Positions 3,846-21,916 of a DNA stretch of 64,000 nucleotides are shown here, piece by piece; position 1 is the stretch's first letter, and each line of letters starts with the position of its first letter. Under the pieces are notes generated by a model. That model ran no database searches. It was not told the origin of the DNA and saw nothing but the letters and a program-made list of their open reading frames with translations. Location of the stretch: positions 10,875 to 74,874 of the forward strand of contig JALOTN010000004.1 in NCBI GenBank assembly GCA_025457885.1. Direction: 5' to 3'. Both the position numbers and the translations under genes were made by a program. This stretch comes from Thermoplasmatota archaeon. GTDB taxonomy: Archaea; Thermoplasmatota; E2; DHVEG-1.

Positions 3846-4595
3846 TTGAAAGGCGGGAGACATATGGTCATAAACTATCTTATCTTAGATATCCTAATCA
3901 TCTTATTTCCGTTCTTACTTTCATTTAAGTGGAAGTTCGCCTATTATCGATACTACAAGGCATTGTTTCCAGCAATCGCCATCGTCGGAGCAGGTTACAT
4001 TTTCTGGGATGCGATTGTGACTGCAAGAGGAGACTGGTGGTTCAACTATGAGTATCTTTCTGAAATCACCATCATCGGATTACCTCTGGAGGAGATTTTA
4101 TTCTTCATTGTTGTCCCCTATTCCTGTATATTCATCTATGAGAACCTTGAGTATTTCTTTCCAGATAAAAAAACAAGATTCAGCAAGATCTTCTATGTTG
4201 TTTTGATCATATTATTCGTTCTCGGTGGACTTGCGTTCTATCACCAGGATTATACAATCCTTGCTCTGATGTCGTGTGCGTTTTTTTTACTCATCGCGCT
4301 TTGGCGTTTCCCAGACATCCTGCAATCACGGAACTACTGGCTCTACATCGGCATATCTATGATTCCCTTCATAATCTTCAATTACCTGCTCACCTCCACG
4401 CCCATCGTATTGTATAACCCTGCGGCCATCTGGGGTGGTGATGGGGCGTGGAACGGCCGGTTCTTCACTATACCACTCGAAGACTTCTTCTATAATTTCT
4501 CGATGCTATCGTTTTATCTGCTTGTTTACCGGTATTTCAGGAAACGATGGATTCAACCATCTACATCAAAACAAGGATTAAAGGATCACAAATGA
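3846..4595 (+). CDS. crtY: Lycopene cyclase domain protein (fused CrtYc/CrtYd-type)
   Basis: 249 aa polytopic membrane protein. It has two copies of the conserved PxE(E/D) motif of heterodimeric-type lycopene cyclases (GLPLEEILFF and TIPLEDFFY). Located beside crtI/crtB. Confidence 0.6.
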   Translation: MKGGRHMVINYLILDILIILFPFLLSFKWKFAYYRYYKALFPAIAIVGAGYIFWDAIVTARGDWWFNYEYLSEITIIGLPLEEILFFIVVPYSCIFIYENLEYFFPDKKTRFSKIFYVVLIILFVLGGLAFYHQDYTILALMSCAFFLLIALWRFPDILQSRNYWLYIGISMIPFIIFNYLLTSTPIVLYNPAAIWGGDGAWNGRFFTIPLEDFFYNFSMLSFYLLVYRYFRKRWIQPSTSKQGLKDHK

Positions 4596-4608
4596 GTGAT
4601 TCAATGGT

Positions 4609-5124
4609 GTGACCACCATGGATTTTTTTGGAGTGATTCTGGATGGATCTTCGGATCCTTTGCTTTTCGGGATTTTCTTTTTCGTCTATGTCGTGCTCAA
4701 TACCCTTGCCCTGCCTTTCCCAGTGGAACTGGGATTATTCAACCCTGCTTTTCATCCCTTGTTCTTGATAGGTATCCTTGCCGTGGGGCGAGGTGTTGGA
4801 GCGTTTTGTGTTTTTGAAATTGGAGGATTTATCAGAAAAAAGACAAGCACGTGGTCTGTAGGTGCATTCCGGTTACGAAAAACAATCAGCTCTCTTGAGC
4901 GGTTTATCCAACAGTATGGATATTATGCCTTGTTCCTCCTTATGAGCATCCCACTCATGCTGGATTCAGTGGTGCTGTATCTCTTTTCTCTTCTCAATAA
5001 ACGAAAGGATACCAAGGTAGCCCTTGCCCGGCGATGGTTTATCGGTATCACCATTGCAGCAAGTATCCTGCGTGGCACCATCATTCTTTTGGTTGCTGAA
5101 TTTGTAAAAATAATCCTGATATGA
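4609..5124 (+). CDS. Small polytopic membrane protein, unknown function
   Basis: 171 aa, 4-5 predicted TM helices, same strand and tightly spaced after crtY. No recognisable motif. Confidence 0.35.
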   Translation: MTTMDFFGVILDGSSDPLLFGIFFFVYVVLNTLALPFPVELGLFNPAFHPLFLIGILAVGRGVGAFCVFEIGGFIRKKTSTWSVGAFRLRKTISSLERFIQQYGYYALFLLMSIPLMLDSVVLYLFSLLNKRKDTKVALARRWFIGITIAASILRGTIILLVAEFVKIILI

Positions 5125-5183
5125 TATATTTAGTAATACAATAGGTATTACCTCTGGTATCACTTCTGGAGGAACATGTCATC

Positions 5184-6548
5184 ATGGTCTATCGTTCACC
5201 CTGGATCGTCCAATTAAAACGGTCCCGACCTATCCAAAAAGCACACTCCTTGCTCCACCCCGATTGTGTAGTTGTCGGTGGTGGTATCGCTGGGGTTGTC
5301 ACCGCATATTTTATTCTTCGACAGACATCTCATACTATCCTTCTCCTCGAGGCCGATCGTGTCGCCCATGGTGCGACTGGTCATAACGCAGGACAAGTAG
5401 TCAGCTACTTTGAGCGTCCTCTTCATGATATCGCCAGTCAGTTTGGGGCGCCTCTCACCTTAGATGCTTATCATCATCTTCAGGAGACCTGGGGTGTCTT
5501 GGATGATATTATCACCACAGCACACCTAAGGACGCCAGTCACAACATTCACTGGGTACGCTGGATACAGCACGTATCACCAACTTTTGAACCAATTAAAG
5601 ACTCTCCACCTGCTGCGCGATTCAAAAACAACACCAGAAAATCTCCTTCTCCTAAAAGAATCAGACCTTCATGGTAAGATCCCCTCCCTGTATCACCCTT
5701 ACATCAGCCTCATAAAACACCAGGAGTTATTACAACTTCTTGGTACGGGAAATTCACAGTATATCGCTGCTTTTCCCGAAAAAAAAGGATGTACCAACTC
5801 AAGTCTTCTGACCGAAGAACTCGTTGGGTATCTCCTCAGTACCTACCCTGAACGGTTTCATCTTTCAGAGCTTACACCTGTGAAAAGAATTTTGGTCACT
5901 CCAACACAAATTACACTTTCGACACCAGATCAGATCATCAAGACCCCTAGTCTGATTCTCTGCACCAATGGGTATACAACGTATCAGATTGATGCAGAAC
6001 CACTTAAACCGGTTCTCCAAAGATTTCATATTACTTCGACAGTCGGTTACATGAATGGATACCTAGATACTACCCTAAAACCACCGACCGCGACCCAATA
6101 CTTCACAACCCAAAACATCTCTCCAATCGATCCTTATTATTATCTCACGCGACGCATCTATGAACATGGAAGACATGCACATACATTGTTATGCATCGGT
6201 GGACCAGAACATCACTTACCGCAGGATCAACCTTATTCCCCTCATGCACAGTATCTTCCGAACGCACATCATGAAATCGACGCCTTCATTCATACAACCA
6301 GCAGCTATCCTCTTATCAAAACAACACCAGATTTTAAATGGCATGGTCTGATGGGCTATACCCCCACGATGATACGTCTGATCGGACCAGACCCACACTA
6401 TCCCAACCTCTCCTATAATCTTGGTTGCAATGGAGTCGGGATTTTACCATCTATCTATGCGGGAAAACGACTCGGTAACTATCTGGCTGGACGCTCCTTG
6501 AAACCATCTATATTTGATACAAAATTCATGAATAACAAAGAATTTTAA
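5184..6548 (+). CDS. FAD-dependent oxidoreductase (DAO-like)
   Basis: 454 aa. N-terminal dinucleotide-binding motif VVVGGGIAGVVTAYFIL (GxGxxG). Sits between crtY and crtI. Confidence 0.55.
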   Translation: MVYRSPWIVQLKRSRPIQKAHSLLHPDCVVVGGGIAGVVTAYFILRQTSHTILLLEADRVAHGATGHNAGQVVSYFERPLHDIASQFGAPLTLDAYHHLQETWGVLDDIITTAHLRTPVTTFTGYAGYSTYHQLLNQLKTLHLLRDSKTTPENLLLLKESDLHGKIPSLYHPYISLIKHQELLQLLGTGNSQYIAAFPEKKGCTNSSLLTEELVGYLLSTYPERFHLSELTPVKRILVTPTQITLSTPDQIIKTPSLILCTNGYTTYQIDAEPLKPVLQRFHITSTVGYMNGYLDTTLKPPTATQYFTTQNISPIDPYYYLTRRIYEHGRHAHTLLCIGGPEHHLPQDQPYSPHAQYLPNAHHEIDAFIHTTSSYPLIKTTPDFKWHGLMGYTPTMIRLIGPDPHYPNLSYNLGCNGVGILPSIYAGKRLGNYLAGRSLKPSIFDTKFMNNKEF

Positions 6549-6625
6549 TAGAAAATAAATATACTCCTGGAACAAAACTTTCTTTAATATCAAAACTATC
6601 CCTAAAATACGTAACGTGAAACACT

Positions 6626-8092
6626 ATGAAGAAAATAATTATAATCGGTGCAGGTTTTGGAGGAATAGCCGCAGCAGCCCTCCTGGCAAGAGATGGACAT
6701 GATGTCACTGTCGTAGAAAAAAACGATCAACCCGGAGGACGAGCCATCGTCTGGAACGAAAAAGGGTTCGTCTTCGACATGGGGCCATCCTGGTACCTCA
6801 TGCCTGATGTTTTCGAACAGTTCTTTGCTCTCTTTAACAAAAAACCAGAAGACTATTATAAACTCATTCGACTCAACCCAGCCTACCGGGTGTTCTTCGA
6901 TAAAGATGAAATCGTCGATATCTCGCCAGACCTTGAGAAGAACCTTCAACTCTTCGAACGATATCAAAAAGGAGGCCGGGAGCAATTAAAAAAATATCTC
7001 CAGGCTGCAGAATATCAATATACAATAGCAATGAAAGAGTTCATCTACAAGGAATATCGTCATCTCTGGGATTTCTTCAGCCTCCGTCTGTTGTTAAAAG
7101 GTAGTAAACTGCATATCTTCACCAGTCTTGACCGCTATGCGCAACGATACATCACCGATCAGAAATTACGGAAGATCCTTGAATACACCATGGTGTTCCT
7201 TGGAGGCACCCCCTTTGACACCCCTGCTTTATACTCCTTGATGTCCCATGTCGATTTCAACCTGGGCGTCTGGTACCCCGATGGTGGATTTGGAGCTCTT
7301 GCGAGAGGTTTTCAACGCCTCGCGGTTGAACAAGGCGTGAAATTCGAATTCAACACAGAAGTAGAAAAAATAATCGTGAAAAACGGGTCGGTCACTGGTG
7401 TGAAAACTTCTAAAGGAGAGACGTCTGCTGATCTGATCATAGCCAACGCAGATTATCCCTATGTTGAAATGAATCTACTCGAACCAACCTATCAAACCTA
7501 TCCAAAGGAATACTGGGAAAAGAAAGCCATTGCTCCCTCTGCCCTGCTCATGTACCTCGGGGTAAAAGGAAAAATCAAATCTTTTGCGCATCATAACCTA
7601 TATTTTGCCACTGACTGGGAGAAACATTTCCAGACAATATTCCATGAACCCAGCTGGCCAGAAAACCCAAGCTACTACGTCAGCTGTCCCTCAAAATCAG
7701 ATGCCACGGTCGCACCAGCAGATGATGAAAACCTCTTCATCCTGGTTCCGGTTGCTGCTGGATTAGAAGATACACCCCAGGTTAGAGAACGATATTTCAA
7801 CCAAATCATAAATCATTTGGAACTACTCACCGGGGAAAACATCAAGGACCGCATTATTGTCAAACGATTATTCGCCCATAAGGATTTCACCCAGTACTAT
7901 CATGCATACAAAGGGACCGCTCTTGGTCTAGCACATACATTGGGGCAAACCGCTATCTTCCGATGCTCCCATCAGAGTAAAAAAGTCAAAGGACTGTATT
8001 ACACCGGCCATTACACACATCCTGGCATCGGAGTTCCCATGGTAGTGATTTCCTCACAAATCATTGCTGAACAGCTTAGGAGCTCTCCATGA
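6626..8092 (+). CDS. crtI: Phytoene desaturase (CrtI family)
   Basis: 488 aa. N-terminal MKKIIIIGAGFGGIAAAALLARDGHDVTVVEKNDQPGGRA is the canonical CrtI FAD-binding start. Length and C-terminal region are typical. Overlaps crtB by 4 bp. Confidence 0.85.
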   Translation: MKKIIIIGAGFGGIAAAALLARDGHDVTVVEKNDQPGGRAIVWNEKGFVFDMGPSWYLMPDVFEQFFALFNKKPEDYYKLIRLNPAYRVFFDKDEIVDISPDLEKNLQLFERYQKGGREQLKKYLQAAEYQYTIAMKEFIYKEYRHLWDFFSLRLLLKGSKLHIFTSLDRYAQRYITDQKLRKILEYTMVFLGGTPFDTPALYSLMSHVDFNLGVWYPDGGFGALARGFQRLAVEQGVKFEFNTEVEKIIVKNGSVTGVKTSKGETSADLIIANADYPYVEMNLLEPTYQTYPKEYWEKKAIAPSALLMYLGVKGKIKSFAHHNLYFATDWEKHFQTIFHEPSWPENPSYYVSCPSKSDATVAPADDENLFILVPVAAGLEDTPQVRERYFNQIINHLELLTGENIKDRIIVKRLFAHKDFTQYYHAYKGTALGLAHTLGQTAIFRCSHQSKKVKGLYYTGHYTHPGIGVPMVVISSQIIAEQLRSSP

Positions 8093-8982
8093 TTATTGAT
8101 AAGACATTCTTCTCCATCTTCAGAAAAGGAAGCAGGACCTACTTCTACAGCAGCCTGTTCTTCCCCATGCATATCCGTCAGGAGGTCTTCATCCTCTACG
8201 GGTTCGTCCGGAAAACAGACAATTACGTCGACGTCACCCCACAGGACCGTGAAGGTTTTTATTCCTTTAAAAAGAAATATTACGAAGCAAAGAACGGAAA
8301 GGAAACCGGGGATGTCGTCATCGACTCCTTCGTCCGCTTAGCGGAACGGAAAGGATTTCACGATGAATGGGTAGACGCGTTCCTGCATTCCATGGAACTA
8401 GACATCACCAAAACCAAGTACGAGACCCTTGAGGAAGCCTTAGAATATATTTATGGATCTGCTGAGGTCATCGGCTTGATGATGGCACGCATCATCGGTC
8501 TTTCAAAAGAATCCTACGAGTATGCGAAATACCTCGGGCGGGCGATGCAATACATCAACTTCATAAGAGACATCGCAGAGGACCTCAAACTCGGTAGAGT
8601 CTATTTCCCGCAAGTCGATTTACGAAAACACGGGCTGGAGAACCTCACCTATGATCATGTAAAAGACCATCCGGAACAATTCAAACGGTTCCTGCAGACC
8701 CAGCTTGATCATTATTGTCAATGGCAAGAAAAAGCAGAGGAAGGTTATCACTACATCCCAAAACGCTACCTCATCTCTATAAAAACCGCCTCTGAGATGT
8801 ACAACTGGACCGCTGAACAAATCGCCCATCACCCCTTCATCGTTTACGACCTCAAAGTCAAACCGATGATCTCAAAGATACTTCTCACCGTTTTTTCAAA
8901 CCTTATCAACACCATGGGAAAGAAATTCAGCACCAACTTCTGTCATGAAGTCCTACACGAACAACCTCCTCCATCAAAGTAG
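8089..8982 (+). CDS. crtB: Phytoene/squalene synthase family (CrtB)
   Basis: 297 aa. Trans-isoprenyl diphosphate synthase head-to-head family features (YFYSSLFFP, Asp-rich regions, RDIAEDL...GRVYFP). Translationally coupled to crtI. Confidence 0.8.
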   Translation: MIIDKTFFSIFRKGSRTYFYSSLFFPMHIRQEVFILYGFVRKTDNYVDVTPQDREGFYSFKKKYYEAKNGKETGDVVIDSFVRLAERKGFHDEWVDAFLHSMELDITKTKYETLEEALEYIYGSAEVIGLMMARIIGLSKESYEYAKYLGRAMQYINFIRDIAEDLKLGRVYFPQVDLRKHGLENLTYDHVKDHPEQFKRFLQTQLDHYCQWQEKAEEGYHYIPKRYLISIKTASEMYNWTAEQIAHHPFIVYDLKVKPMISKILLTVFSNLINTMGKKFSTNFCHEVLHEQPPPSK

Positions 8983-8987
8983 CTCCT

Positions 8988-9968
8988 ATGAAATCCTTCA
9001 TCAAACCTCGAATCGTTATCAGCAAATGCATTGAATTTGACTTCTGCCGCTACAACAGCCAAATCATCCGCAGCCCAATCGTTAGCACCCTCAAACCCTA
9101 TGTCGAGTTCCAGCCCATCTGCCCTGAAGTAGAAATCCAACTAGGGGTACCAAGAGACCCTATCCGCATCATCGAACAACATACCAACAAAAAGTTAGTA
9201 CAACCAACAACCGGTAGAGATGTCACCGATGCGATGCAAACATTCACCCAGCACTTCCTTGCCTCACTTCAAGGAATTGACGGTTTTTTATTAAAATCAC
9301 AGTCTCCCTCCTGTGGGACGCGAGATGTGAAAATCTATCCAGCGGTCCTCCATTCTGCACCAGTACGCAGGGAAGCAGGATTCTTCGGAGAACAAGTCCT
9401 CCAACGGTTCCCCCATCTTGCCATCGAAGATGAGATGCGACTCCAGAACCCCGTCATCCGACAACACTATCTCACAAAGATATTCACCTTCGCCGCCTTC
9501 CGATCGGTCAAAGACAAAGCATCACTCCAACGGTTATTACAGTTTCACACAGAAAACAAATACCTCCTCATGGGATATAGTCAAAAAGAACTCCGCATCC
9601 TAGGCAATATCCTTGCGAACCAAGAGAAACAACCACTTCCCAAGATGTTCACCGAGTATGAACACCATCTGCATCTAGCGTTTCTTAAGGCACCACGATA
9701 CACCTCCCAGATAAATGTACTGAACCATACCTTTGGATACATCTCAAAAGAGCTCTCCGCTGCAGAAAAAAGGTTTTATGCAGACCTCCTCGAAAAATAC
9801 AAAAATGGACAGATTCCACTCAGCGTCCCAGTCAACCTCATACGCTCCTGGGTCATCCGATTCGAACAAAGCTATCTCTTACCTCAGACCTTTTTCGAAC
9901 CCTACCCTAATCAACTCCTGGACATAGAAGCGATAAAAGCAAGCGAGGTGAGGGATTTCTGGAAGTAA
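8988..9968 (+). CDS. DUF523/DUF1722 (YbgA/TudS-like) protein
   Basis: 326 aa. N-terminal Cys-containing DUF523-like region (ISKCIEFDFCRYN...PICPEV) plus C-terminal DUF1722-like region. ybgA homologs are classically linked to photolyase genes. Confidence 0.55.
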   Translation: MKSFIKPRIVISKCIEFDFCRYNSQIIRSPIVSTLKPYVEFQPICPEVEIQLGVPRDPIRIIEQHTNKKLVQPTTGRDVTDAMQTFTQHFLASLQGIDGFLLKSQSPSCGTRDVKIYPAVLHSAPVRREAGFFGEQVLQRFPHLAIEDEMRLQNPVIRQHYLTKIFTFAAFRSVKDKASLQRLLQFHTENKYLLMGYSQKELRILGNILANQEKQPLPKMFTEYEHHLHLAFLKAPRYTSQINVLNHTFGYISKELSAAEKRFYADLLEKYKNGQIPLSVPVNLIRSWVIRFEQSYLLPQTFFEPYPNQLLDIEAIKASEVRDFWK

Positions 9969-10057
9969 AAAAAACAGATGAACAGAATAACACGACAGAA
10001 CCATCACAGGATCTCCGTCGTCTCATCCACACCCTCCTGTCCAGCCAGCATTTCGCT

Positions 10058-10453
10058 GTGATTGCGACAGAGTCACATCATCACCCCTACACCAGCCTCG
10101 TTTCATTTGTCCCTTCATCGGACGATACTCATCTTTATTTCCCAACAAAAAAAGAGACACAGAAATTTTTTAATATATCAAAAAACCCGCATATCGCTGC
10201 CCTCATCGATAATCGAGAGAACACCCCCGGTGATTTCTCGAAGGCTACCACGGTCATTGCATTAGGAGTTGCCTCTGCAGTAGAGACGAACAAAGAACAT
10301 ATTAGGGAACTTCTCCTCCAAAAACACCCTGATTTATCTGATTTCATCTCTCATCCAGACTGTGCGCTTATCGACATCACCATAACGACCTATCAGATTG
10401 TACAACAATTCGAAAAAGTAAAGATCCTGCGTCTGAGAGATGTACCAGAATGA
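10058..10453 (+). CDS. Pyridoxamine 5'-phosphate oxidase-like FMN-binding split-barrel protein
   Basis: 131 aa as annotated (GTG start). The in-frame upstream peptide RRLIHTLLSSQHFAV resembles the usual N-terminus of this family, so the true start is probably upstream or non-canonical. Overlaps the photolyase start by 4 bp. Confidence 0.45.
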   Translation: MIATESHHHPYTSLVSFVPSSDDTHLYFPTKKETQKFFNISKNPHIAALIDNRENTPGDFSKATTVIALGVASAVETNKEHIRELLLQKHPDLSDFISHPDCALIDITITTYQIVQQFEKVKILRLRDVPE

Positions 10454-11787
10454 TTCAGCAGGAACGCATCCAGCAGCTCAATTCTCATTCCATCGGCTCA
10501 GGAGATTATGTACTCTACTGGATGCAAGCATCACAACGAATTCTAGATAATCATGCGTTACAATACGCGATACAGAAAGCCAATGAATACCAGAAACACC
10601 TCGTAGTTTTTTTTGGTTTGACACCTTCTTTTCCCGAGGCGAACCAAAGACATTACACTTTCATGCTTGAAGGTCTCAAAGAAACACAACAATCGCTTGA
10701 AAAACAAGGTATCACTTTTATCATTCAACCAATCTCACCAGAACAAGGAATCAAGAGACTCGCAACAGATGCATTACTCCTTGTCGTCGATAGAGGGTAC
10801 CTGCGTATTCAACGACAATGGAGACAGATAGTAGCCCAGCAGGTGCGTTGTCCACTACTCCAAGTTGAGACGGATGTCATCGTCCCCATTGATGTTGTGT
10901 CACAGAAAGAAGAATATGCGGCTGCAACCATCAGACCAAAGATACTGAAAAACCTAGAAAAGTTCCTGGTCCCCATCGAACCAGAACCACTTCAAAAAAC
11001 CTGTACGATGCATCATTTCGACTCACTTGACCTTTCGGACATACCCCGTCTTATAACGAACCTTCAAATCGATTCAACCGTGAAACCATCCGCACTATTT
11101 CATGGGGGGACGTCTGCTGCATTGCGATTCCTCCGTCGATTCATCACCCAGAAACTACCATGTTTTTCTGAGTTAAGAAATGACCCGAGCAAAGAATTTT
11201 GTTCCTATCTTAGCCCGTATCTTCATTTCGGTCAAATCTCCCCCTTAACGATCGCATTGAAAATTCGTGCAACAAAGGACCCCAACACTGACGCATTCCT
11301 CGAAGAACTCATCGTGCGAAGGGAGCTGAGTATGAACTATGTATACTTCAACAAAGACTATGATTCCTTCGCTGGTTTACCCTCATGGGCGAAGACAACG
11401 CTTCTCAACCATGTAAAAGACCCTCGACCGTATCTTTATACCGAAGAGGAACTTGAGACTGCAAAGACTCATGACCCGTTCTGGAACGCGGCTCAACGAG
11501 AAATGACACAGACAGGGAAGCTGCAAGGATATATGCGGATGTATTGGGGGAAGAAAATCATTGAATGGACTTCATCACCACAGGAAGCTTTTCAACTGGC
11601 TCTCCGGTTGAATAACAAATATGAACTGGATGGAAGAGACCCCAATGGATTCGCTGGTGTCGCCTGGTGCTTTGGGAAGCACGACCGAGCATGGAAGGAA
11701 CGACCGGTCTTCGGGAAAGTCCGTTACATGAATGACGCGGGTCTGACAAGGAAATTTGATATGACATCCTATATCAGGAACTTATAA
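10450..11787 (+). CDS. phr: Class II CPD deoxyribodipyrimidine photolyase
   Basis: 445 aa. YVLYWMQASQRILDNHALQYAI near the N-terminus and the C-terminal FAD-binding region (GYMRMYWGKK, W-rich) match class II photolyases of archaea/metazoa. Confidence 0.85.
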   Translation: MIQQERIQQLNSHSIGSGDYVLYWMQASQRILDNHALQYAIQKANEYQKHLVVFFGLTPSFPEANQRHYTFMLEGLKETQQSLEKQGITFIIQPISPEQGIKRLATDALLLVVDRGYLRIQRQWRQIVAQQVRCPLLQVETDVIVPIDVVSQKEEYAAATIRPKILKNLEKFLVPIEPEPLQKTCTMHHFDSLDLSDIPRLITNLQIDSTVKPSALFHGGTSAALRFLRRFITQKLPCFSELRNDPSKEFCSYLSPYLHFGQISPLTIALKIRATKDPNTDAFLEELIVRRELSMNYVYFNKDYDSFAGLPSWAKTTLLNHVKDPRPYLYTEEELETAKTHDPFWNAAQREMTQTGKLQGYMRMYWGKKIIEWTSSPQEAFQLALRLNNKYELDGRDPNGFAGVAWCFGKHDRAWKERPVFGKVRYMNDAGLTRKFDMTSYIRNL

Positions 11788-11819: not shown

Positions 11820-12461
11820 TTATGGCACATGCAGTTCTTTGTCATGACGTATTAATGGAGTGTTGATTAAGGCTCTGAGGAAATCTATCGGGGGAAACTG
11901 TTCTTTATACCCAAGGACTGCGACATAGTCCCCTCCTTTCTGGTAGGGGTCCCAATAATAGACGGAATACGTCCCTGTAATGTTGATCGTCTCATCGAAC
12001 CGTGGGCCTTGATAGTATGATTTTCCACCAAATAGCTCATAGAACTGATCCCGTGGGCTCCCCGGTGGAGCATCTGCTTTTATGATCACGCCACACCCCT
12101 CAGGGATCTCAAATGGTAGGGTCTGATTGGGTGGGGGGAGTCCAGGACCAACCAAGGCAAACCACGGAGTGAAATTCGCATAGAACCCATCACAGACCGG
12201 GACAATAACCTCAAGGAAAATCTGTAATGGCTTGTCTTGTATATTGAACTGGTATACATCGATGTCTGTTGCTGGATTTACCCAGTCGGTCTCCAACCAG
12301 GAATACACTGCGATTGATTGGGTGATTGATCTTCTCACCTTGAATGGTTCTTCAATGGTCGAATCCCGACGTTCCAGATAAGGAACGTGAGCAAGAACGG
12401 TCGGCATAAAAAATAAGAAGCTGCTTATGATTACAAAGATAAACAAGCGTAACCTTTTCAT
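11820..12461 (-). CDS. Secreted hypothetical protein
   Basis: 213 aa with N-terminal signal peptide (MKRLRLFIFVIISSFLFFMPTVLA). No recognisable domain. Confidence 0.4.
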   Translation of the reverse strand: MKRLRLFIFVIISSFLFFMPTVLAHVPYLERRDSTIEEPFKVRRSITQSIAVYSWLETDWVNPATDIDVYQFNIQDKPLQIFLEVIVPVCDGFYANFTPWFALVGPGLPPPNQTLPFEIPEGCGVIIKADAPPGSPRDQFYELFGGKSYYQGPRFDETINITGTYSVYYWDPYQKGGDYVAVLGYKEQFPPIDFLRALINTPLIRHDKELHVP

Positions 12462-12550: not shown

Positions 12551-13507
12551 ATGATTTCATTGTATCAAAAACGTGGGGAGAATGTATCCATGTCTGATAT
12601 GAAAATCATGTGTCCGAAATGCCGCCATCAGTTCAATACCACAGGTGCACCAAACGAAAAAATCTATGTCACCTGTCCCTCCTGTAAGACCTATGGGACG
12701 TTTCTGGTCCCAGCAGGAGCCTGCGACCCGAAGAAAGTGGAATGTTTCACAGATATAGGAGATACCCGTTTTCGGAAATTACGGATTTTTAATGCCGTGA
12801 TGGGTGTCATCCATATGATTCAGGGGATCCTTATGCTTATTCTGAGTAATTCTTTTACCTTACCTCTTTGGTACACACGCCCAGAGTATAACGCGGTCAC
12901 CAACACGATTTCACCTGTTTCAGTGGAATTTTTGAAGCTTCCAATTGGACCACTTGTCGCCTTGTTCCTCTTCATGTCGGCAACAGCACACATCCTCCTT
13001 TCCACGGTGCTGTACAAATGGTATGTGAACAATCTGAAGAATCATATCAATCCTGCCCGTTGGTATGAATACTCTTTAAGTGCGTCCCTTATGATTTTCC
13101 TTATTGCCATGTTGGTCACGATTTATGATTTTGGAACGTTACTTGCGCTATTCACCTTGACAGCCGTGATGAACCTTATGGGGTTAATGATGGAGCTTCA
13201 TAATCAGACGACGACAAAGACGAAATGGACGTCGTTTAACATCGGATGCCTCGCAGGATTCATCCCTTGGGTTGTGATCTTCATCCCTCTGGTGATGGCG
13301 TCATCAGTCCCGGATTTTGTCATTGCGATTTTTATTACGATCGCGGTGTTCTTCAACCTCTTCGCCATCAACATGTTCCTTCAGTACAAGCGAATTTGGA
13401 AATGGAAGGATTACCTCTATGGTGAGCGGATGTATATCGTCCTCAGTCTGGTTGCTAAATCTGCTCTCGCCTGGCAGGTGTTCGCCGGAACCCTTCGACC
13501 AATGTAA
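12551..13507 (+). CDS. Heliorhodopsin with N-terminal zinc-ribbon domain
   Basis: 318 aa. Residues ~75-318 align closely with heliorhodopsin 48C12: FNAVMGVIHMIQGILMLILSN, WYEYSLSASLMIFLIA, GCLAGFIPWVVIFIPL, and the TM7 retinal-lysine motif YIVLSLVAKSALAWQVFAGTL, which is near-identical. The N-terminal ~60 aa carries CPKC...CPSC (C4 zinc ribbon). Confidence 0.85.
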   Translation: MISLYQKRGENVSMSDMKIMCPKCRHQFNTTGAPNEKIYVTCPSCKTYGTFLVPAGACDPKKVECFTDIGDTRFRKLRIFNAVMGVIHMIQGILMLILSNSFTLPLWYTRPEYNAVTNTISPVSVEFLKLPIGPLVALFLFMSATAHILLSTVLYKWYVNNLKNHINPARWYEYSLSASLMIFLIAMLVTIYDFGTLLALFTLTAVMNLMGLMMELHNQTTTKTKWTSFNIGCLAGFIPWVVIFIPLVMASSVPDFVIAIFITIAVFFNLFAINMFLQYKRIWKWKDYLYGERMYIVLSLVAKSALAWQVFAGTLRPM

Positions 13508-13567: not shown

Positions 13568-14209
13568 ATGAGCAGCGGCGCGGGTAACCCAGGTATAATA
13601 GATGTCCCCTATTTCCAGCAGACGCGGACCGCAACCTGTGGTCCTGCGTGTCTGATGATGGTGATGAACTATTGGGATTCTTCTTTTGATTTATCAAGGA
13701 AGATGGAATTCCGACTTTGGACACAGAGTTACTCATTGTTTTTACTTGGTGGAACATTTCAATATGAGTTGGCATCCACCGCCGCAGCTTATGGTTTTCA
13801 CCCGGAGATTTCTCAAAAGACAGGATTCTCCACAGAATACCCACGATTCCCACAACTTGCGACACTGATTGAAAACATGGTCTCTTACAAGGCGCGTCGT
13901 ATGAACATCCCTATCCATTATGGATCTGAGAATATTACAGTGATCCGTAAAGCGCTTTCTGAGAACATCCCACCGATTGTTTTTATCAATCTGTTGCCTC
14001 TTCTTGGTGAGAATGTCCTCCATTGGGTCGTTGTCACTGGACTAGATGAACAGTTGGTTCATATAAACGATCCATACATCCCTAAAGGTTTTTTAGGGAA
14101 ACAAAAGAAAAACCATCCTGTTCCAAGAGACGTTTTTTTAAAAGCGATGGAAACACAAACCGGTCGTATCTACCGACTCCCACCATGTGTCGTCCTCATT
14201 AAACCATAG
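13568..14209 (+). CDS. Peptidase C39-like (papain-fold cysteine peptidase) domain protein
   Basis: 213 aa, apparently cytoplasmic. Catalytic Cys context QQTRTATCGPACLMMVMNYW, downstream His (LHWVVVTGLD) and Asp (INDPY) are consistent with a C39-like triad. Confidence 0.5.
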   Translation: MSSGAGNPGIIDVPYFQQTRTATCGPACLMMVMNYWDSSFDLSRKMEFRLWTQSYSLFLLGGTFQYELASTAAAYGFHPEISQKTGFSTEYPRFPQLATLIENMVSYKARRMNIPIHYGSENITVIRKALSENIPPIVFINLLPLLGENVLHWVVVTGLDEQLVHINDPYIPKGFLGKQKKNHPVPRDVFLKAMETQTGRIYRLPPCVVLIKP

Positions 14210-14274
14210 AAACACAATTGGGGTTTTCTTTTGAAACGAACCTTTAAATGACCCTAATGTTTTGATGATTCATC

Positions 14275-15564
14275 ATGCGGATTCTTATCACGGATGAAAT
14301 GAGCCTTAGTACGGTCTTTACTCCTTTTGATCGTTCGTTTCTCTATTCGTTTTCATTTATTCCAACTGTGATTACTGCACGACAGTTGGCTGCGGTGACA
14401 CCCTCAGCCCATCTAGTGACAATCCAAGAAGGAAACCGACCTATCGATTATGATGCATCCTATGATGTGGTACATATAAATTTCAAAACCGCGCTTGCTC
14501 CCCGGGCGTATGAGGTTGCTGATGCGTTCCGGAAGAGAGGAAATCGTGTCATCCTCAGTGGGTATCATCCCTCTGCTCTGCCTGATGAGGCGATGCAACA
14601 TGCGGATGGAATCATAATTGGTGATGCTATCACCCTCTGGCCGGTCGTGGTAAGAGACCTTGAAAATAATACACTCCGACCTCTGTACACCTCTGCTGAT
14701 ACCCCTGAGACACTAATTCTTCCCTCGACATCTTCTGTTACACTGAAGAGTCTTCAATTGACCAATTCCATTGAGGCGACTCGTGGTTGTCCCCATAAAT
14801 GTGATTTCTGTCAGGATTCAAATATTCGAGATGGATCTATGTTTCGCACCCGGTCTCTTGATGATGTCATTGAAGAGGTCGCCTCCCTTCAGCAAAAAGT
14901 ATTTTTCTTCACTGATTTTTCGTTGACTATCGATTTAGCGTATACGAAAGAGTTGTTTCGTTGTCTACGACCGTTGAAAAAGAAGTTTATCTGCGGCGGG
15001 AACATTGATGTTCTTGGTGAAGATGAAGAGCTGCTTCGATTGTCTCATGAGGCTGGATGCATTGAATGGATCAGTGGTTTTGAAACGTTTTCCCAGGAAT
15101 CACTTGATGGTGCGCATAAAAAATCAAACATCGTGGATGACTATACAAGGGCTGTGAAGAATATCCATAAACACAGGATGGCTGTGTTTGGAACATTCGT
15201 CCTTGGTTTTGATGAAGACACCCCCGATATCTTTCAGACGATGCAAACCCACATTGGGAGGCTTGGGATTGATGCAGTAAATTTTGCTCTTCTCACACCC
15301 TACCCAGGGACTCCCTTGTTCTCGCGGTTAGAAAAAGAGGGACGAATACTCACGAAGGATTGGTCATTATATAATCGGAAGAATGTTGTATTTGCACCAA
15401 AGAACATAACAAAAAAAGAACTGGAGGAAGGATTTCGAACCATCACCCGATCGTTTAGTTCCCTTCCTTCGATGGGATATCGAACCGTCCGAAGTCTAAG
15501 TCTAGGAGTGTATCCCTGTCTAGCAACCTTTGCTGGAAACCTCGGACAATATATGAAAACGTGA
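14275..15564 (+). CDS. B12-binding domain-containing radical SAM enzyme
   Basis: 429 aa. N-terminal Rossmann-like cobalamin-binding region, then radical SAM CxxxCxxC (ATRGCPHKCDFCQDS). C-terminal region typical of the class B family. Confidence 0.75.
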   Translation: MRILITDEMSLSTVFTPFDRSFLYSFSFIPTVITARQLAAVTPSAHLVTIQEGNRPIDYDASYDVVHINFKTALAPRAYEVADAFRKRGNRVILSGYHPSALPDEAMQHADGIIIGDAITLWPVVVRDLENNTLRPLYTSADTPETLILPSTSSVTLKSLQLTNSIEATRGCPHKCDFCQDSNIRDGSMFRTRSLDDVIEEVASLQQKVFFFTDFSLTIDLAYTKELFRCLRPLKKKFICGGNIDVLGEDEELLRLSHEAGCIEWISGFETFSQESLDGAHKKSNIVDDYTRAVKNIHKHRMAVFGTFVLGFDEDTPDIFQTMQTHIGRLGIDAVNFALLTPYPGTPLFSRLEKEGRILTKDWSLYNRKNVVFAPKNITKKELEEGFRTITRSFSSLPSMGYRTVRSLSLGVYPCLATFAGNLGQYMKT

Positions 15565-15731: not shown

Positions 15732-16700
15732 TTAGGCGATATGACACACATTCGACCCTTCATCGGTGCATATCTGAAGGGTACATTCGATGATATTGTA
15801 TTTCTTCAAAAGATAATCATTTATTTTTGAAATGGCGTCCTCTTGTGTACCCTGGATTTTATTTGACTCAAGCTGCATATGAGCAGAAAACACAAGCATA
15901 TCCGGAGTGATTGACCAGAGATGGACATTATGGAGGTCTCGTATTTCCGGGAAATTCTTTTTCAGATCCTCCGAAATCATAGCGATGTTCAAACCCTTCG
16001 GTGCTGTCTCCAAGAGAATCCTTGTGGAATCTTTTAATACACCCCATGCCCAAAACACGATGATAATGGAAATACCAATACTGACAATTGGATCAATGAA
16101 GATCCAGTTCGTAAACATGATAATTAGAGCTGCGATGACGATACCAACTGATGAGATTGCATCAGCGAACATATGATAAAACACCCCACGGATATTCAAA
16201 TCCTTCTGGTGAGCTCCTCGTAGGATAAGGATGCTTAGGATGTTCACCGTTAAACCGATACATGCGATAAGGAGCATTTCCGTACCAAGAATTTCAATGG
16301 GATGGATGAACCGTAAAACAGCTTCGTAAATGATGATTCCTACGACAACCAGTAGAAATAATCCATTCACAAACGCAGCAAGGACCTCTGCCCTGTACAA
16401 CCCGAATGTTTGATGATGACAGGGTGGTTTCCGTGCGATGAGGATAGCTGCAAGTCCGATAATTAAGGCGAACGCATGGGTAAACATATGCCCTGCGTCA
16501 CTGAACAACGCCATGCTGTTTGTCAGATACCCCCCGATAAACTCTAGGACCATAGCGATAATTGTAATTGACAGAGAAATCATGAGTTTCTTCTGTTCAA
16601 CATGCCGATATTCAAAGAGATGCTCTGCATCGGGAGAACTTTTCTTGTCATCCTTCATAGGTTTTGTCGACTCTTTTCCACTGATACTCCTTGTTTGCAA
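15732..16700 (-). CDS. Cation diffusion facilitator (CDF) family divalent metal efflux transporter
   Basis: 322 aa, 6 TM + cytoplasmic C-terminal domain. CDF signature FSDAGHMFTHAFALIIGL (HxxxD) and a second HD pair in TM5. Confidence 0.8.
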   Translation of the reverse strand: MQTRSISGKESTKPMKDDKKSSPDAEHLFEYRHVEQKKLMISLSITIIAMVLEFIGGYLTNSMALFSDAGHMFTHAFALIIGLAAILIARKPPCHHQTFGLYRAEVLAAFVNGLFLLVVVGIIIYEAVLRFIHPIEILGTEMLLIACIGLTVNILSILILRGAHQKDLNIRGVFYHMFADAISSVGIVIAALIIMFTNWIFIDPIVSIGISIIIVFWAWGVLKDSTRILLETAPKGLNIAMISEDLKKNFPEIRDLHNVHLWSITPDMLVFSAHMQLESNKIQGTQEDAISKINDYLLKKYNIIECTLQICTDEGSNVCHIA

Positions 16701-16728
16701 CGATTTTTAAGCTTTTTTGATTTTTCTC

Positions 16729-18588
16729 TCATATCTCTTGTGGGGGAACAATCGGTAAGGTAAACCGGAAGGTACTACCTTTCCCCAATTCACTGTCTAC
16801 CCATATCTTCCCACCATGGGAAAGGACCACACCTTGCGCTATCGTAAAACCAAGTCCTTCAATCCCTGTGTCAATCTGGTAGAGGATGTCAAAAATCTTT
16901 TTCTGTTTGTTCTTTGGGATGCCTTGACCAAAGTCCTGCACTTCAAAGATGATATCATCGCGTTCTTTATTGACTTTCACAGAGATATTTGATCCTTCCG
17001 GGGAGACGTTGATGGCGTTCTGCAGGAGGTTTACAAGGACCTGTCTGATGCGTTCCTGATCAATCATCATCTCCGGGAGGTCCTCATCGATTTCTTTCAT
17101 GATTTGAATTTGTTTATCTTCTGCTGCGTTTTGTATTGCACCAGTCGCAGTGTGTATCAACCTCTGGATGTCTGTTTTTTCTGGGATGAATTTCATTGTT
17201 CCTGACTCTAGATGAGAGACATCGACGGTGTCCTGGATGAGTTGGTCTAATCGATCGGTGTTTGTGAGGATCACCTCAAGACCCTTTCGTTGTTCTTCTG
17301 TGATGGGGCCAAGGCTTTTCATGAGCAGTATCTCGACGTATCCTTTGATGGTCGCCATGGATGTTCGTAACTCATGAGAGGTGACGCTTAGGAAATTTGA
17401 TTTGATATGATCTAGTTTTTTTAATCGAGTGTTTTGTTGTTCGATTTTCTTTTGTGCTTTCTGCAGTTTCTCCAGCTGGACATGGAGTTCTCCGATGGTG
17501 CGTTTGTATTCATTGGTGTGTTTTTTCAGCATCTGGTTTTCTTTAGCGAGGTCTACGGTGCGCTCCTGGACTTTTTTATCTAACCAGAAATGGGCTTTAT
17601 GAAGCTCCTCTTCGATTTTTTTCCGACCTGTGACATCTTCCATGGTGGAATACACTGAAAGCGTGCCACCGGTCTCATTGAAGCTGAGAAAATCATGAAT
17701 GATGAAGACGCGTGGTTCACCATTCTTGGTAATGTAGGTCCGTTCATGGCCTCCCGCGTAAGGTTTTTTGTTGTTGATTTTTTCTTTGAAGGAGGCTTTT
17801 GCGGCTTCTTGTTCGTCACCGTGGATGTACTCAAAGATTGAGTTTCCAATGACTTCAGTTTTTGTGTAGCCAAACAGGTTGCACCATTTTTCATTGACAT
17901 CCGTAATCGTCCCATCGGACGCAAGGGTATGGTAGGGGACGGGTGCTTTTTCGTAGAGTTGTTTGAATTTTTCTTCGGAGGCTCGTAGGGCGTGTTCCAT
18001 TTGTTTGTTCTGTGTATTGTCTTTGATAATGCCAATTGAGCCAATCACGTTGTTGATACGGTCTTTGAGGACGCTAAGGGAGATGTCGACGTCGATGAAG
18101 GTGTTATCCTTTCTAATCATCTGGGTTTCCATATGGTGTTGGATGCCTTTCTGTCTGATGTTTTCGGAGCGGATTTTCTTCCATTCCTCTGGTGGGTAGA
18201 GGTATTTAACGGGTCGCATTATGAGTTCTTCTCGGGTCAGTCCGAGGAGTCGTTCGGTGTATTTGTTCCAATGAACAATCCGTTCATTCTCATCAGTCAG
18301 CATGATGGCGACCGCGGAGTTGTCAAAGATGATTCGGTATTTTTGGCTTGGGTCTCCCAGGTCAATGGTTCTGATGTCCTCCTCCTTACGGTGTCGGAGG
18401 ATGGTGAATATCGAATCCAGTGGCTCTTCCTCAAGTTCCCTGGGGATGACGATCGTATGTTTTCCTGGGGTGTGGGCTCGTAGTTTTCCCATGCGTTCTT
18501 CTTGTCGTAAGGTCTGGATGATCTCCGGGTCTTCTTTTTTCATGGTTTTCCTCCTGGATTCTTTCCTCTTTTTCTTTTTAACACTCAC
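16729..18588 (-). CDS. Cytoplasmic PAS-domain sensor histidine kinase
   Basis: 619 aa. Lys-rich N-terminus, two PAS-like regions, a coiled coil, H-box SHELRTSMATIKGY, and HATPase_c N/G boxes (NLLQNAINV, QDFGQGIP, GLGFTIA). No adjacent response regulator. Confidence 0.8.
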   Translation of the reverse strand: MSVKKKKRKESRRKTMKKEDPEIIQTLRQEERMGKLRAHTPGKHTIVIPRELEEEPLDSIFTILRHRKEEDIRTIDLGDPSQKYRIIFDNSAVAIMLTDENERIVHWNKYTERLLGLTREELIMRPVKYLYPPEEWKKIRSENIRQKGIQHHMETQMIRKDNTFIDVDISLSVLKDRINNVIGSIGIIKDNTQNKQMEHALRASEEKFKQLYEKAPVPYHTLASDGTITDVNEKWCNLFGYTKTEVIGNSIFEYIHGDEQEAAKASFKEKINNKKPYAGGHERTYITKNGEPRVFIIHDFLSFNETGGTLSVYSTMEDVTGRKKIEEELHKAHFWLDKKVQERTVDLAKENQMLKKHTNEYKRTIGELHVQLEKLQKAQKKIEQQNTRLKKLDHIKSNFLSVTSHELRTSMATIKGYVEILLMKSLGPITEEQRKGLEVILTNTDRLDQLIQDTVDVSHLESGTMKFIPEKTDIQRLIHTATGAIQNAAEDKQIQIMKEIDEDLPEMMIDQERIRQVLVNLLQNAINVSPEGSNISVKVNKERDDIIFEVQDFGQGIPKNKQKKIFDILYQIDTGIEGLGFTIAQGVVLSHGGKIWVDSELGKGSTFRFTLPIVPPQEI

Positions 18589-19751: not shown

Positions 19752-20447
19752 GTGAATCCTGCGAAAAAACCATCTGAGACGATGCCTCAACAGTTTCATT
19801 TTCATGATTTAGTAATCTCCTTACATCCTGAGGTCTATGATCCTGCAGAGGATTCCTTCCTCTTGCTTGAATCTCTCATGATTAGCCCAAAGGACACAAT
19901 TTTAGAGCTAGGCACTGGGTGTGGTCTGATCGCCTTAGCCTGTGCCTTTCAAGGAGCAACGGTGGTCTGTACAGATATCAATCCGTATGCCGTCCAACTT
20001 ACCCGTCAGAACATCGAAAAAAACAGCCATCTTCTCAAAGGAGTAATCACCGTTCGACAAGGAGATTTGTTTTCCATGGTGAAAAACTCGGAACGATTCA
20101 ACTTGATTCTGTTCAATCCTCCCTATCTTCCCACGAAAAAAAACGAAAGAACAGACACCTGGTTCAATGTTGCGACCGATGGAGGACCCACCGGTCTGCG
20201 GCTGACCAAACAATTCCTTCATGGCCTCCGTCAGCATCTTCAGCCAGATGGTGCTGGATATTTCATCTTCAGCTCCTTGTCGAACCGGATTCTTCTGGAG
20301 AAATACCTTAAAAAGGAACAGCTCTCCTCAACGATTCTTACCACAAAACGATATGACGGGGAGGACCTTGACGTCTACCGCGTCACTCCGACAGCTTCAA
20401 ATCAACAAAAAGAGTTACGTTCCCCAACTGAGGCACGCACCACATGA
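19752..20447 (+). CDS. HemK/Mtq2-type protein N5-glutamine methyltransferase-like class I SAM MTase
   Basis: 231 aa. EVYDPAEDSFLL, the SAM motif LELGTGCGLIALA, and the NPPY motif (ILFNPPYLP) are characteristic of the HemK/Mtq2 family. GTG start, with an alternative ATG at 19782. Confidence 0.7.
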   Translation: MNPAKKPSETMPQQFHFHDLVISLHPEVYDPAEDSFLLLESLMISPKDTILELGTGCGLIALACAFQGATVVCTDINPYAVQLTRQNIEKNSHLLKGVITVRQGDLFSMVKNSERFNLILFNPPYLPTKKNERTDTWFNVATDGGPTGLRLTKQFLHGLRQHLQPDGAGYFIFSSLSNRILLEKYLKKEQLSSTILTTKRYDGEDLDVYRVTPTASNQQKELRSPTEARTT

Positions 20448-21013
20448 CCGATGATCTTTACCCCTGGGGTGGTGAATTCACCACATGCTCACCACATGGT
20501 TGCGTCGCAGTCGTACTCCTCAATATCCAGTACACCCCACCAGAGAGCATCGCCATCTACGGACCTTTAAAAACAGAGAATATCGGCATTGAAAAAATCA
20601 TTGCAAACGTCATTTCAAATCCCTTTATTCGTTATTTAGTACTCTGTGGTGAGGACATCCGGGGACATCGCTCAGGCGCCTCCCTTGTCGCCTTGCATAA
20701 AAATGGGATTGATCAGAATCATCGTATCATTGATGCACTTGGTGCCATCCCTTACATCGAAAACCTCCACCAAGAAGCGATTAAAAGATTCCAGGATCAA
20801 TTAACCATCATCAATCTCCTTGGAGTGACACAAAAAGACCATATCGATGCCGTCATCACAGACTGCAACCAAAAGGCACCCCCCTCATTTGGTGCCCCCT
20901 ACATTGCGATACGCATCAAACCACAGGCGACGGTGACCCTCACAGACAATCGAGCGTTACATTCAAGGATTATTATTGATTATTTAGGGAACATCAAAAA
21001 AAGAGGTATGTGA
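20444..21013 (+). CDS. mtrA: Soluble MtrA-like corrinoid-binding protein (homolog of tetrahydromethanopterin S-methyltransferase subunit A, lacking the C-terminal TM anchor)
   Basis: 189 aa. PLKTENIGIEKIIANVISNPFIRYLVLCGEDIRGHRSG closely matches the MtrA cobamide-binding region, including the conserved His ligand. GAIPYIENLHQEAIKRFQDQ also matches. No C-terminal hydrophobic helix. Confidence 0.75.
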   Translation: MTDDLYPWGGEFTTCSPHGCVAVVLLNIQYTPPESIAIYGPLKTENIGIEKIIANVISNPFIRYLVLCGEDIRGHRSGASLVALHKNGIDQNHRIIDALGAIPYIENLHQEAIKRFQDQLTIINLLGVTQKDHIDAVITDCNQKAPPSFGAPYIAIRIKPQATVTLTDNRALHSRIIIDYLGNIKKRGM

Positions 21014-21916
21014 ATGTTTTCATTTACAAAAGAACAGAAAATCTTCGACATCTCCGGTGTAACCATCGGAGGCCAACCCGGGATGTACCCCACTGTCTTA
21101 TTTGGTGGGTTGTTCTTCAAAGGCGAACCGGATTTCGAGGATGCGAAACGACACCTGCAGGTCTTCTATGACCGCAGCAAACAAACCGGAGTCCCTGTCA
21201 TCCCTGATTTCTTCATCAGGAAAGTCGAGTATATCGACCCTATCCTCTCCTTCATTGAAAAGACAATCCCCCGGAAACACCCTTTCTCTGTTGACATCAT
21301 CGAACCATCTTTGAAGATACAGACCTTGGAACAGCTCGCACACAGAAAACTCCTGCCCCGAACAATCTATAACTCTCTACACATCGGGATGACCAGCGAG
21401 GAACATGAGGCATTACAGACACATCCACCAGAGGCAGCTATCCTCGTCGCATTTAATCCGAAAGACAAATCCCCTGATGGAAAAATCGAGGTTCTTGAGA
21501 ACGGGGCACATCTTATGGAACAAGGATTGTTGAAAACCGCTCAGGATATCGGTATTACGAAACTGCTGATTGACACTGCGGCACTTGCCCCTGGTGAGAA
21601 CAGCGGGGCTGCGATCGCTGCCATCCCCGTCATCAAGGAGGAATACGGTTTACCCACAGGGTGCGCTATCCATAATGTCGTTGAGAAATCCCGGTGGTTA
21701 AACGACTTCCCCTTCGCGAAAAAAACAGTCGACGTCAGCTCCAATACCACCATCCCGCTCTTCGGCGGGGATTACGCACTCTTCGGACCTATTGAAAACA
21801 CAGAACTCATTCTCCCGCTCATCGCCTGGCAAGACATCCTCATCTCCGAGTATACTGAGAATTATTTCGGAATCATCCCAACTGCTTCACATCCTCGGAG
21901 GAAACTACTCAAATGA
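21014..21916 (+). CDS. mtrH: MtrH-like methyl-pterin:corrinoid methyltransferase
   Basis: 300 aa. N-terminus MFSFTKEQKIFDISGVTIGGQPGMYPTVL is near-canonical for MtrH (MFxFDKEQxVFDIGGVKFGGQPGExPTVL). C-terminal YALFGPIEN matches too. Confidence 0.8.
   Translation: MFSFTKEQKIFDISGVTIGGQPGMYPTVLFGGLFFKGEPDFEDAKRHLQVFYDRSKQTGVPVIPDFFIRKVEYIDPILSFIEKTIPRKHPFSVDIIEPSLKIQTLEQLAHRKLLPRTIYNSLHIGMTSEEHEALQTHPPEAAILVAFNPKDKSPDGKIEVLENGAHLMEQGLLKTAQDIGITKLLIDTAALAPGENSGAAIAAIPVIKEEYGLPTGCAIHNVVEKSRWLNDFPFAKKTVDVSSNTTIPLFGGDYALFGPIENTELILPLIAWQDILISEYTENYFGIIPTASHPRRKLLK

Follow-up and report, generated by a model that had tools for sequence, protein, structure and literature searches.

Within a 64-kb stretch of Thermoplasmatota archaeon DNA, referred to here as the window and supplying all coordinates below, an open reading frame (ORF) at 12551..13507 (+; 318 amino acids, aa) encodes a heliorhodopsin (HeR) with an in-frame N-terminal CPKC...CPSC motif. 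The protein is a further member of the published Znf-HeR subfamily, in which a zinc ribbon precedes the rhodopsin, so the fusion itself is already known. The ribbon looks like a generic cytoplasmic docking module and not like a HeR-specific or DNA-binding output domain. We put at about one half the probability that it is a protein-docking module which would place a partner at the cytoplasmic face of the receptor for modulation by light. Related loci are denoted L### and homologue protein clusters P####.

The Znf-HeR subfamily (ntv1) was named by Bulzu et al. in 2021 for six heliorhodopsins of Thermoplasmatales, whose N-terminal extension has the pattern CxxC-17x-CxxC and gave an HHpred match to zinc_ribbon_4 (mSphere 6:e00661-21, PMC8612252). 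Their flanking genes encode lycopene cyclase, phytoene desaturase, SQS_PSY, DNA photolyase and UvdE, with a histidine kinase nearby (PMC8612252). The window protein is assigned to this subfamily because it shares the motif, the taxon and the carotenoid, photolyase and histidine kinase neighbours; nothing essential differs. The first-pass annotation of the DNA, which treated the fusion as unusual for the family, had therefore met an arrangement that was already described and named, and the window adds a member and not a discovery. The subfamily is much larger than the six sequences of the earlier study: it counts at least 118 clusters (90 % identity), and 13 loci in 12 species-level genomes carry the fusion. 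We found no experimental work on the fusion in the literature; later papers merely cite it.

The seven-helix HeR domain occupies 12779..13495 (+). The Pfam model PF18761 matches ORF residues 77-315 over its entire length (profile positions 1-242 of 242) with an E-value of 2.1e-93 and 312.6 bits against a threshold of 26.7. Likewise, the NCBIfam model NF038020 ("heliorhodopsin HeR") aligns at positions 1-244 of 244 with residues 64-302 of a 305-aa protein (the numbering used from here on, justified below), scoring 336.6 bits (cut-off 100). Among solved structures, TaHeR comes closest (PDB 6is6; E = 1.9e-118, ~72 % identity), and identity to HeR 48C12 is 42-43 %. The motif in the seventh transmembrane helix (TM7), which the first-pass annotation had called nearly identical to that of 48C12, is in fact identical over the 15 residues YIVLSLVAKSALAWQ. 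It aligns K290 (codon at 13457..13459, +) with K241, the lysine of 48C12 that carries retinal as a Schiff base. In TM3, E160 (codon at 13067..13069, +) aligns with the counterion E107/E108 of 48C12 and TaHeR, the counterion role of this glutamate being known from published HeR structures. Both residues are invariant in an alignment of 30 sequences.

A full-length AlphaFold2 model built from 30 homologues has a mean predicted local distance difference test score (pLDDT) of 69, which corresponds to moderate confidence. Strands at residues 90-101 and 106-118, following helix 1, form a TM1-TM2 beta-hairpin in this model. A Foldseek comparison with 6is6 gave E = 2.8e-23, a TM-score of 0.89 and a root-mean-square deviation of 2.5 Å. 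Sequence and model together thus indicate a complete heliorhodopsin with the predicted Schiff-base lysine and glutamate counterion in place, and the family assignment made in the first-pass annotation holds. Heliorhodopsins have an experimentally established inverted topology with a cytoplasmic N-terminus. The loops TM2-3, TM4-5 and TM6-7 read as rich in lysine and arginine, as does the RFRKLR entry to TM1. From the family topology and these loops we infer, in agreement with the first-pass annotation, that the N-terminal ribbon lies in the cytoplasm.

The start codon of the gene requires correction. The first-pass annotation and some gene callers begin translation at ATG 12551, and the exact 318-aa product has been called on three independent public metagenome contigs. 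Comparison with homologues indicates that ATG 12590 (M14 of the 318-aa ORF) is almost certainly the real start. The best-supported coding sequence is therefore 12590..13507 (+), comprising 305 codons and a stop, as judged from homologue lengths, a Shine-Dalgarno-like motif and the HeR models. The majority of homologues are 305 aa long and begin with M-x-E-x-K-I-x-C, seven residues ahead of the first cysteine. A GGGGAG motif at 12575..12580 (+) lies 9 nt 5' of ATG 12590, and GGAG/GAGG motifs occur 7-10 nt 5' of the conserved ATG in the window and most of the loci displayed; they stand out in L001-L006, L008 and L011, and are ambiguous in L012 and in three loci whose alignment begins at residue 3. 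The reading frame opened by the homologous upstream ATG of L001 is closed by a TAG. The start at 12551 is rejected because of these three observations (homologue length and start, the conserved Shine-Dalgarno-like motif, and the TAG in L001). The 13 in-frame codons at 12551..12589 (+) are present only in the two nearest clusters (P0001, P0002), other loci having 3-25 open codons 5' of the conserved methionine, and they are probably a noncoding 5' leader.

The zinc-ribbon domain comprises residues 1-40 (12590..12709, +), for which four beta strands are predicted and which contain two knuckles of the form CPxC. Knuckle 1, CPKC, lies at 12611..12622 (+) and knuckle 2, CPSC, at 12674..12685 (+). 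The first-pass annotation recognised this Cys4 ribbon correctly, but the spacer between the knuckles, RHQFNTTGAPNEKIYVT, is 17 residues long and not 18. C-x2-C-x17-C-x2-C is found at the N-terminus in 118 of the 120 closest clusters at 90 % identity, which are 99-70 % identical to the window protein; of the remaining two, one is a gene call that begins downstream and the other is truncated. C8, P9, C11, G19, C29, P30, C32, T34 and G36 are invariant in the 30-sequence alignment, and conservation beyond the cysteine ligands extends to the elements HQF, G-x-P and TYG-x-F-x-F/V-P. A variable acidic linker (residues 41-63; 12710..12778, +) connects the ribbon to RFRKLR and TM1. Within it, C52-F53 (nt 12743-12748) is nearly invariant, both residues being kept in at least 90 % of sequences, and a further linker cysteine is often found at C45 or C60. 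The linker has a negative net charge, and that of the ribbon is about +3.

The ribbon is under purifying selection. In comparisons with L001-L003 (Nei-Gojobori method), the ratio of nonsynonymous to synonymous substitution rates (dN/dS) is 0.06-0.12 for the ribbon codons and 0.02-0.03 for the seven-helix part where dS is unsaturated; in some pairs the ratio for the linker exceeds that for the ribbon. The retention of the four cysteines (118 of 120 clusters) and the purifying selection on the ribbon show that the fusion is no artefact of annotation. Such an artefact would arise if translation truly began past the cysteine pairs, leaving the ribbon untranslated or as a separate small gene, and a single NCBI call (P0045, 256 aa) does begin past the ribbon, at a non-ATG codon. 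However, 118 of the 120 clusters have no stop between ribbon and TM1, and the conserved Shine-Dalgarno-like start lies 5' of the ribbon. The ribbon is retained with either start, and the next methionine 3' of it falls within TM1. Two findings that would have told against the fusion, a methionine start after the CxxC pairs and poor conservation of the cysteines, were anticipated in the first-pass annotation; neither was obtained, since the start at 12590 precedes the ribbon and the cysteines are conserved. We consider an annotation artefact exceedingly improbable.

An AlphaFold2 model of the ribbon alone (pLDDT 80) predicts strands at residues 2-7, 14-19, 24-28 and 35-39, with the knuckles between strands 1 and 2 and between strands 3 and 4. 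No zinc-ribbon model scored above threshold in a Pfam scan of the domain. PF13717 (Zn_ribbon_4) matched the full protein at E = 0.016 and the isolated domain at E = 0.0063, below the gathering score of 30.3 bits; the same model matches all 34 family ribbons tested at E<=0.1 (best 4.5e-6), in every case below threshold. PDB searches with the ribbon by sequence, profile and fold gave no significant match. The top fold match is the zinc finger of ZitP (PDB 2nb9), with a TM-score of 0.67 normalised to the target and a non-significant E-value of 0.83. We found no solved Znf-HeR structure; the entry 9vfc, a 317-aa HeR with an N-terminal extension, was unmatched by the ribbon sequence or profile at E<=10. 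No strong second copy of the ribbon was found in the window. The sole other ribbon-like signal lies at 30124..30816 (+), where weak double CxxC-ribbon matches (E = 0.012) fall in the C-terminal half of an open frame that holds ORF 30283..30819.

The first-pass annotation suggested a one-component light sensor with an attached nucleic-acid- or protein-binding module. If the ribbon bound DNA or RNA, Znf-HeR would be a membrane-tethered regulator of, for example, the adjacent carotenoid and photolyase genes, by analogy with Brz of Halobacterium salinarum. Brz is a small zinc-finger protein that regulates bop and crtB1 (PMC2253796). Nucleic-acid binders are found among the archaeal zinc fingers of CPxCG type. 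Brz, like the ribbon, is an archaeal CPxC-type zinc finger and is tied genetically to an opsin gene and crtB1 (PMC2253796). In distant Znf-HeR members, crtB, crtI and lycopene cyclase genes adjoin the receptor gene. A net charge of about +3 would suit such binding, and PF23454 (Zn_ribbon_Brz) gives weak matches to 33 of the 34 ribbons (best E = 4.5e-5). Against this, the PF23454 matches are all sub-threshold, and they are offset by one knuckle in the ribbons for which aligned ranges are given (window, P0164 and P0141), knuckle 2 of the ribbon aligning with the start of the Brz profile, whereas PF13717 fits all 34 ribbons, and better. Brz itself is a free-standing small protein with a histidine in its second pattern, and its own DNA binding is not demonstrated in the passages of PMC2253796 consulted. 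Because the matches are sub-threshold and offset, homology to Brz is rejected as generic knuckle similarity, leaving an analogy only; no evidence of orthology was found. No nucleic-acid-binding family matched the ribbon above threshold; the models for TFIIB, Brz, Elf1 and Com ribbons matched it too weakly and, where ranges are given, over a single knuckle. The linker of ~20 residues to TM1 would leave little reach to the chromosome, and the presence of the ribbon on ABC ATPases, peptidases and secretion ATPases, described below, is hard to square with sequence-specific DNA binding. We therefore regard DNA or RNA binding as quite unlikely.

The distribution of the fusion was surveyed in one genome per species (GTDB representatives), which yielded 80 HeR loci. 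The ribbon is present in 13 of these, from 12 genomes, and all 13 are titled Thermoplasmatota, Thermoplasmatales or Euryarchaeota UBA33; the relatives are 66-91 % identical to the window protein. No bacterial or other archaeal HeR locus among the 80 carries the ribbon. Directly 5' of the gene, the non-fused locus L014 (77 % identity) and L017-L030, which include the TaHeR-like L025 (74 %), show either a stop codon in frame or just a brief open stretch, and the absence of the ribbon from these close relatives is therefore real. We also considered whether TaHeR-type proteins could be mis-annotated truncations of Znf-HeR; this was rejected from the same upstream stops and short frames in the loci compared, L014 and L017-L030. 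One metagenome-assembled genome (MAG; CAZXHI01, uncultured Thermoplasmatales) encodes two Znf-HeR paralogues on different contigs (L007, 7531..8436, and L009, 10001..10909), just one of which adjoins carotenoid genes and the gene for a 213-aa protein discussed below. A combined pattern and hidden Markov model search of the 80 loci in six frames for a free-standing ribbon gene beside non-fused HeRs gave just one weak candidate, in the Thermoplasmata MAG locus L031. There, a CRKC-x17-CPKC sequence at ~17490..17595 (+; E = 5e-5 to the ribbon profile) forms the C-terminal end of a 355-codon open frame ~7 kb 3' of the non-fused HeR gene.

The ribbon is also found on proteins that are not rhodopsins. 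An exhaustive search of 1.84 billion cluster representatives with a ribbon profile returned 274 representatives at E<=1e-3. The best 150 matches include 81 non-HeR proteins that share the exact spacing C-x2-C-x17-C-x2-C at their N-terminus, together with the G-x-PGE turn and G-x-F-x-FP tail; they lie among P0129-P0270 (for example P0151, P0164, P0171, P0188, P0220, P0232 and P0263). The carriers include ABC_tran/DrrA-like ABC-2 ATPases (at least 21 by motif), S26 signal-peptidase-like proteins (recognised by weak, sub-threshold Pfam matches together with a sequence motif), a T2SSE/FlaI-type ATPase, several families of small polytopic membrane proteins, and multi-ribbon repeat proteins. One of the ABC-2 ATPases is paired with an ABC-2 permease beside archaeal ribosomal protein genes, in a cluster whose NCBI name is Thermoplasmata/Thermoplasmatota. 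Alignment of the HeR and non-HeR ribbons with hhalign covers all 42 columns with a probability of 99.9 % and an E-value of 1.4e-31. A taxon label could be read for one of ten non-HeR carrier clusters looked up (Thermoplasmata/Thermoplasmatota); the ribbon is likely restricted to this lineage. PMC8612252, where searched, makes no mention of the ribbon on non-rhodopsin proteins (the terms "ABC transporter" and "standalone" are absent from it).

The range of these carriers, from ABC ATPases and S26-like peptidases to the T2SSE/FlaI-like ATPase and unrelated membrane proteins, makes a HeR-specific output domain less likely than a generic docking module. Since the same ribbon heads so many unrelated membrane-associated proteins in apparently one lineage, its binding target is probably common to all carriers and not specific to light signalling. 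The same distribution is also compatible with a housekeeping role independent of light sensing, in which the ribbon would act as a fast-folding plug on the cytoplasmic side that fixes the N-in orientation, as an anchor to membrane or lipid, or as an element of oligomerisation or stability. The modestly positive charge of the ribbon is in keeping with such a role, and TaHeR-type relatives, which lack it, are functional and form dimers in crystals. MORN repeats, the other known HeR fusion, have been discussed as membrane-binding or dimer-stabilising (PMC8612252). On the other hand, soluble ABC ATPase subunits and the T2SSE-type ATPase, which also carry the ribbon, have no need of a topology determinant, and the strong conservation of non-cysteine positions (HQF, G-x-P, TYG-x-F-x-F/V-P) suggests a specific binding surface. 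We consider a housekeeping role possible, though clearly less probable than protein docking.

As a protein-docking module, the ribbon would fold around a metal ion (zinc, possibly iron) at the cytoplasmic face and hold a soluble or peripheral partner beside the receptor's loops on that side of the membrane. Once docked, the partner would be modulated by the slow conformational change that light drives in HeR, in the manner in which non-fused HeRs bind and modulate glutamine synthetase, photolyase or an ABC transporter. Light-dependent binding and modulation of partners has been described for AbHeR with glutamine synthetase, TfHeR with photolyase and OcHeR with the ABC transporter OmrDE, the partners being cytoplasmic or membrane proteins encoded nearby (PMC9529153, PMC9769723, PMC11109279). 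These receptors belong to the same family as Znf-HeR, without the ribbon. In the window, the photolyase differs from those arrangements in being of class II and in lying 760 bp 5' of the HeR gene with an oppositely oriented gene between them.

ZitP of Caulobacter crescentus, the top (non-significant) fold match, offers a parallel in favour of docking. Its ZnR domain, of the zinc_ribbon_5/4 clan, resembles that of Znf-HeR in being a Cys4 ribbon of ~40 residues at the cytoplasmic N-terminus of a transmembrane protein, to which it is joined by a linker. The ZitP zinc finger binds the protein PopZ directly (PMC5182065). ZitP differs from Znf-HeR in that it is bacterial, bitopic and unrelated to light, with a fold match of E = 0.83 and without detectable sequence homology in the PDB searches. 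To our knowledge, no PopZ relative is to be expected in archaea. By analogy with ZitP-PopZ, the ribbon may even be a docking tag of Thermoplasmatota that brings HeR, ABC-2 ATPases, signal-peptidase-like proteins, the FlaI/T2SSE-type ATPase and polytopic proteins to one cytoplasmic hub or scaffold, with Znf-HeR as the light-sensitive member. We think this rather unlikely; if true, it would mean light control over a shared hub instead of a single enzyme.

Several observations weigh against docking for modulation by light. The confidence of the full-length model is moderate (pLDDT 69) and the ZitP fold match is not significant (E = 0.83). The ribbon is dispensable for basic HeR function, since TaHeR-type proteins, which are close relatives, lack it although their cytoplasmic loops are nearly unchanged. 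The charge of about +3 would fit binding to lipid head groups or to nucleic acid equally well and does not discriminate between the readings. Moreover, beyond the carotenoid genes and the 213-aa protein, the gene neighbourhood is kept among close relatives only, and what conservation there is could reflect chromophore supply and not signalling.

Few handles exist on what heliorhodopsins signal to, and a cytoplasmic domain attached covalently to the receptor is among them. The Znf-HeR clade has many members, is strongly conserved and starts at a well-defined codon, which permits confident construct design. TaHeR (from Thermoplasmatales archaeon SG8-52-1; PDB 6is6, 7clj, 7u55), which has been crystallised and characterised spectroscopically, provides a natural ribbon-less control: it has 259 aa, is ~72 % identical across the seven helices, and shares the TM3 glutamate, the TM7 lysine and near-identical cytoplasmic loops. 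Since ABC ATPases and other membrane proteins carry the same ribbon, the question of what it binds can be approached through a partner common to all carriers.

The gene neighbourhood, with its carotenoid (retinal-precursor) genes, class II photolyase and PAS kinase, points to a response to light and protection against ultraviolet radiation. A carotenoid cluster at 1878..8982 (+) was identified with Pfam and contains genes for UbiA prenyltransferase, lycopene cyclase, a CrtI-like phytoene desaturase and a CrtB-like (SQS_PSY) phytoene synthase, with others interspersed; these include a rhodanese-domain protein, a small, weakly VTT-like membrane protein and an FAD oxidoreductase. No beta-carotene dioxygenase (Blh/Brp) was recognisable among the ten genes scanned. 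Carotenoid genes are linked to Znf-HeR in L001-L003, L007, L008 and L013, of which L007, L008 and L013 are distant (70-72 % identity), and also lie beside the non-fused HeR of L023. The simplest reading of this linkage is supply of the chromophore precursor together with photoprotection.

A class II cyclobutane pyrimidine dimer photolyase is encoded at 10450..11787 (+; PF00875; TIGR00591 phr2, 551 bits against a cut-off of 550). Among the loci examined, a photolyase lies near Znf-HeR solely here and in L013, and one is also found beside the non-fused HeR of L023. The gene is the last of a string of three at 8988..11787 (+), after a 2-thiouracil-desulfurase/DUF1722 (YbgA-like) fusion and a PNPOx/F420-type oxidoreductase, and its start overlaps the stop of the preceding gene. 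The whole string recurs in L013 and parts of it in L002, L003, L008 and L023. We take the DUF1722/photolyase layout to be reminiscent of the ybgA-phr pairing of E. coli.

The most constant neighbour of Znf-HeR is a 213-aa uncharacterised protein, encoded here at 11820..12461 (-) divergently from HeR and adjacent to it, in divergent or convergent orientation, in L001-L004, L007 and L013. Neither Pfam nor NCBIfam models match it. The 486 proteins of its family likewise lack Pfam domains; those that are named are called "hypothetical", and every source name that includes an organism points to Thermoplasmatota. By eye, the N-terminus resembles a signal peptide, with a histidine after the likely cleavage site (VLA|HVPY). 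An A/T-rich spacer of 90-130 bp separates the 213-aa gene from HeR.

On the other side of HeR, genes at 15732..18588 (-) encode, as identified with Pfam, a CDF-type cation (zinc) efflux protein and a PAS-PAS-HisKA-HATPase histidine kinase (16729..18588). The pair lies directly 3' of HeR in L003, L010 and L015, and the CDF gene in L002, where the contig ends; all are close relatives (at least 87 % identity). The pair converges on the HeR locus and, given the putative zinc site of the receptor, the arrangement may be more than synteny.

This linkage bears on a further alternative, that the four cysteines sense redox state or metal. Light-induced oxidative stress would oxidise the ribbon, or zinc availability demetallate it, and the receptor would thereby be switched, which would provide a second input and not an output. 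Cys4 zinc sites can act as redox switches, and the additional conserved linker cysteines (C52, often C45 or C60) are compatible with this function, as is the position of the CDF gene, directly 3' of HeR in the four loci just named and two genes away in the window. Bulzu et al. associate HeRs with oxidative stress induced by light, and cite that TaHeR and 48C12 bind zinc at an unassigned site which may be cytoplasmic (PMC8612252). Yet the CDF linkage, confined to close relatives, may be plain synteny, and sequence cannot separate a structural from a regulatory site, the many unrelated carriers favouring a structural one. A sensor role for the cysteines is, in our view, improbable.

Two genes, one for a C39-like cysteine peptidase (DUF3335/Peptidase_C39_2) and one for a radical SAM protein with B12-binding domain, separate HeR from the CDF gene in the window (13568..15564, +). 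Among the genome loci examined this pair is found only in L004; it is also present on the metagenome contig L081, whose HeR is identical to that of the window. It looks like an insertion because the CDF gene directly follows HeR in L002 and L003. Further downstream, a conserved string at 19752..22812 (+) encodes methyltransferase, MtrA-like, MtrH-like and cobalamin-independent-synthase-like proteins, the first three of which also occur in L003, and suggests methyl-transfer metabolism in this Thermoplasmatota lineage.

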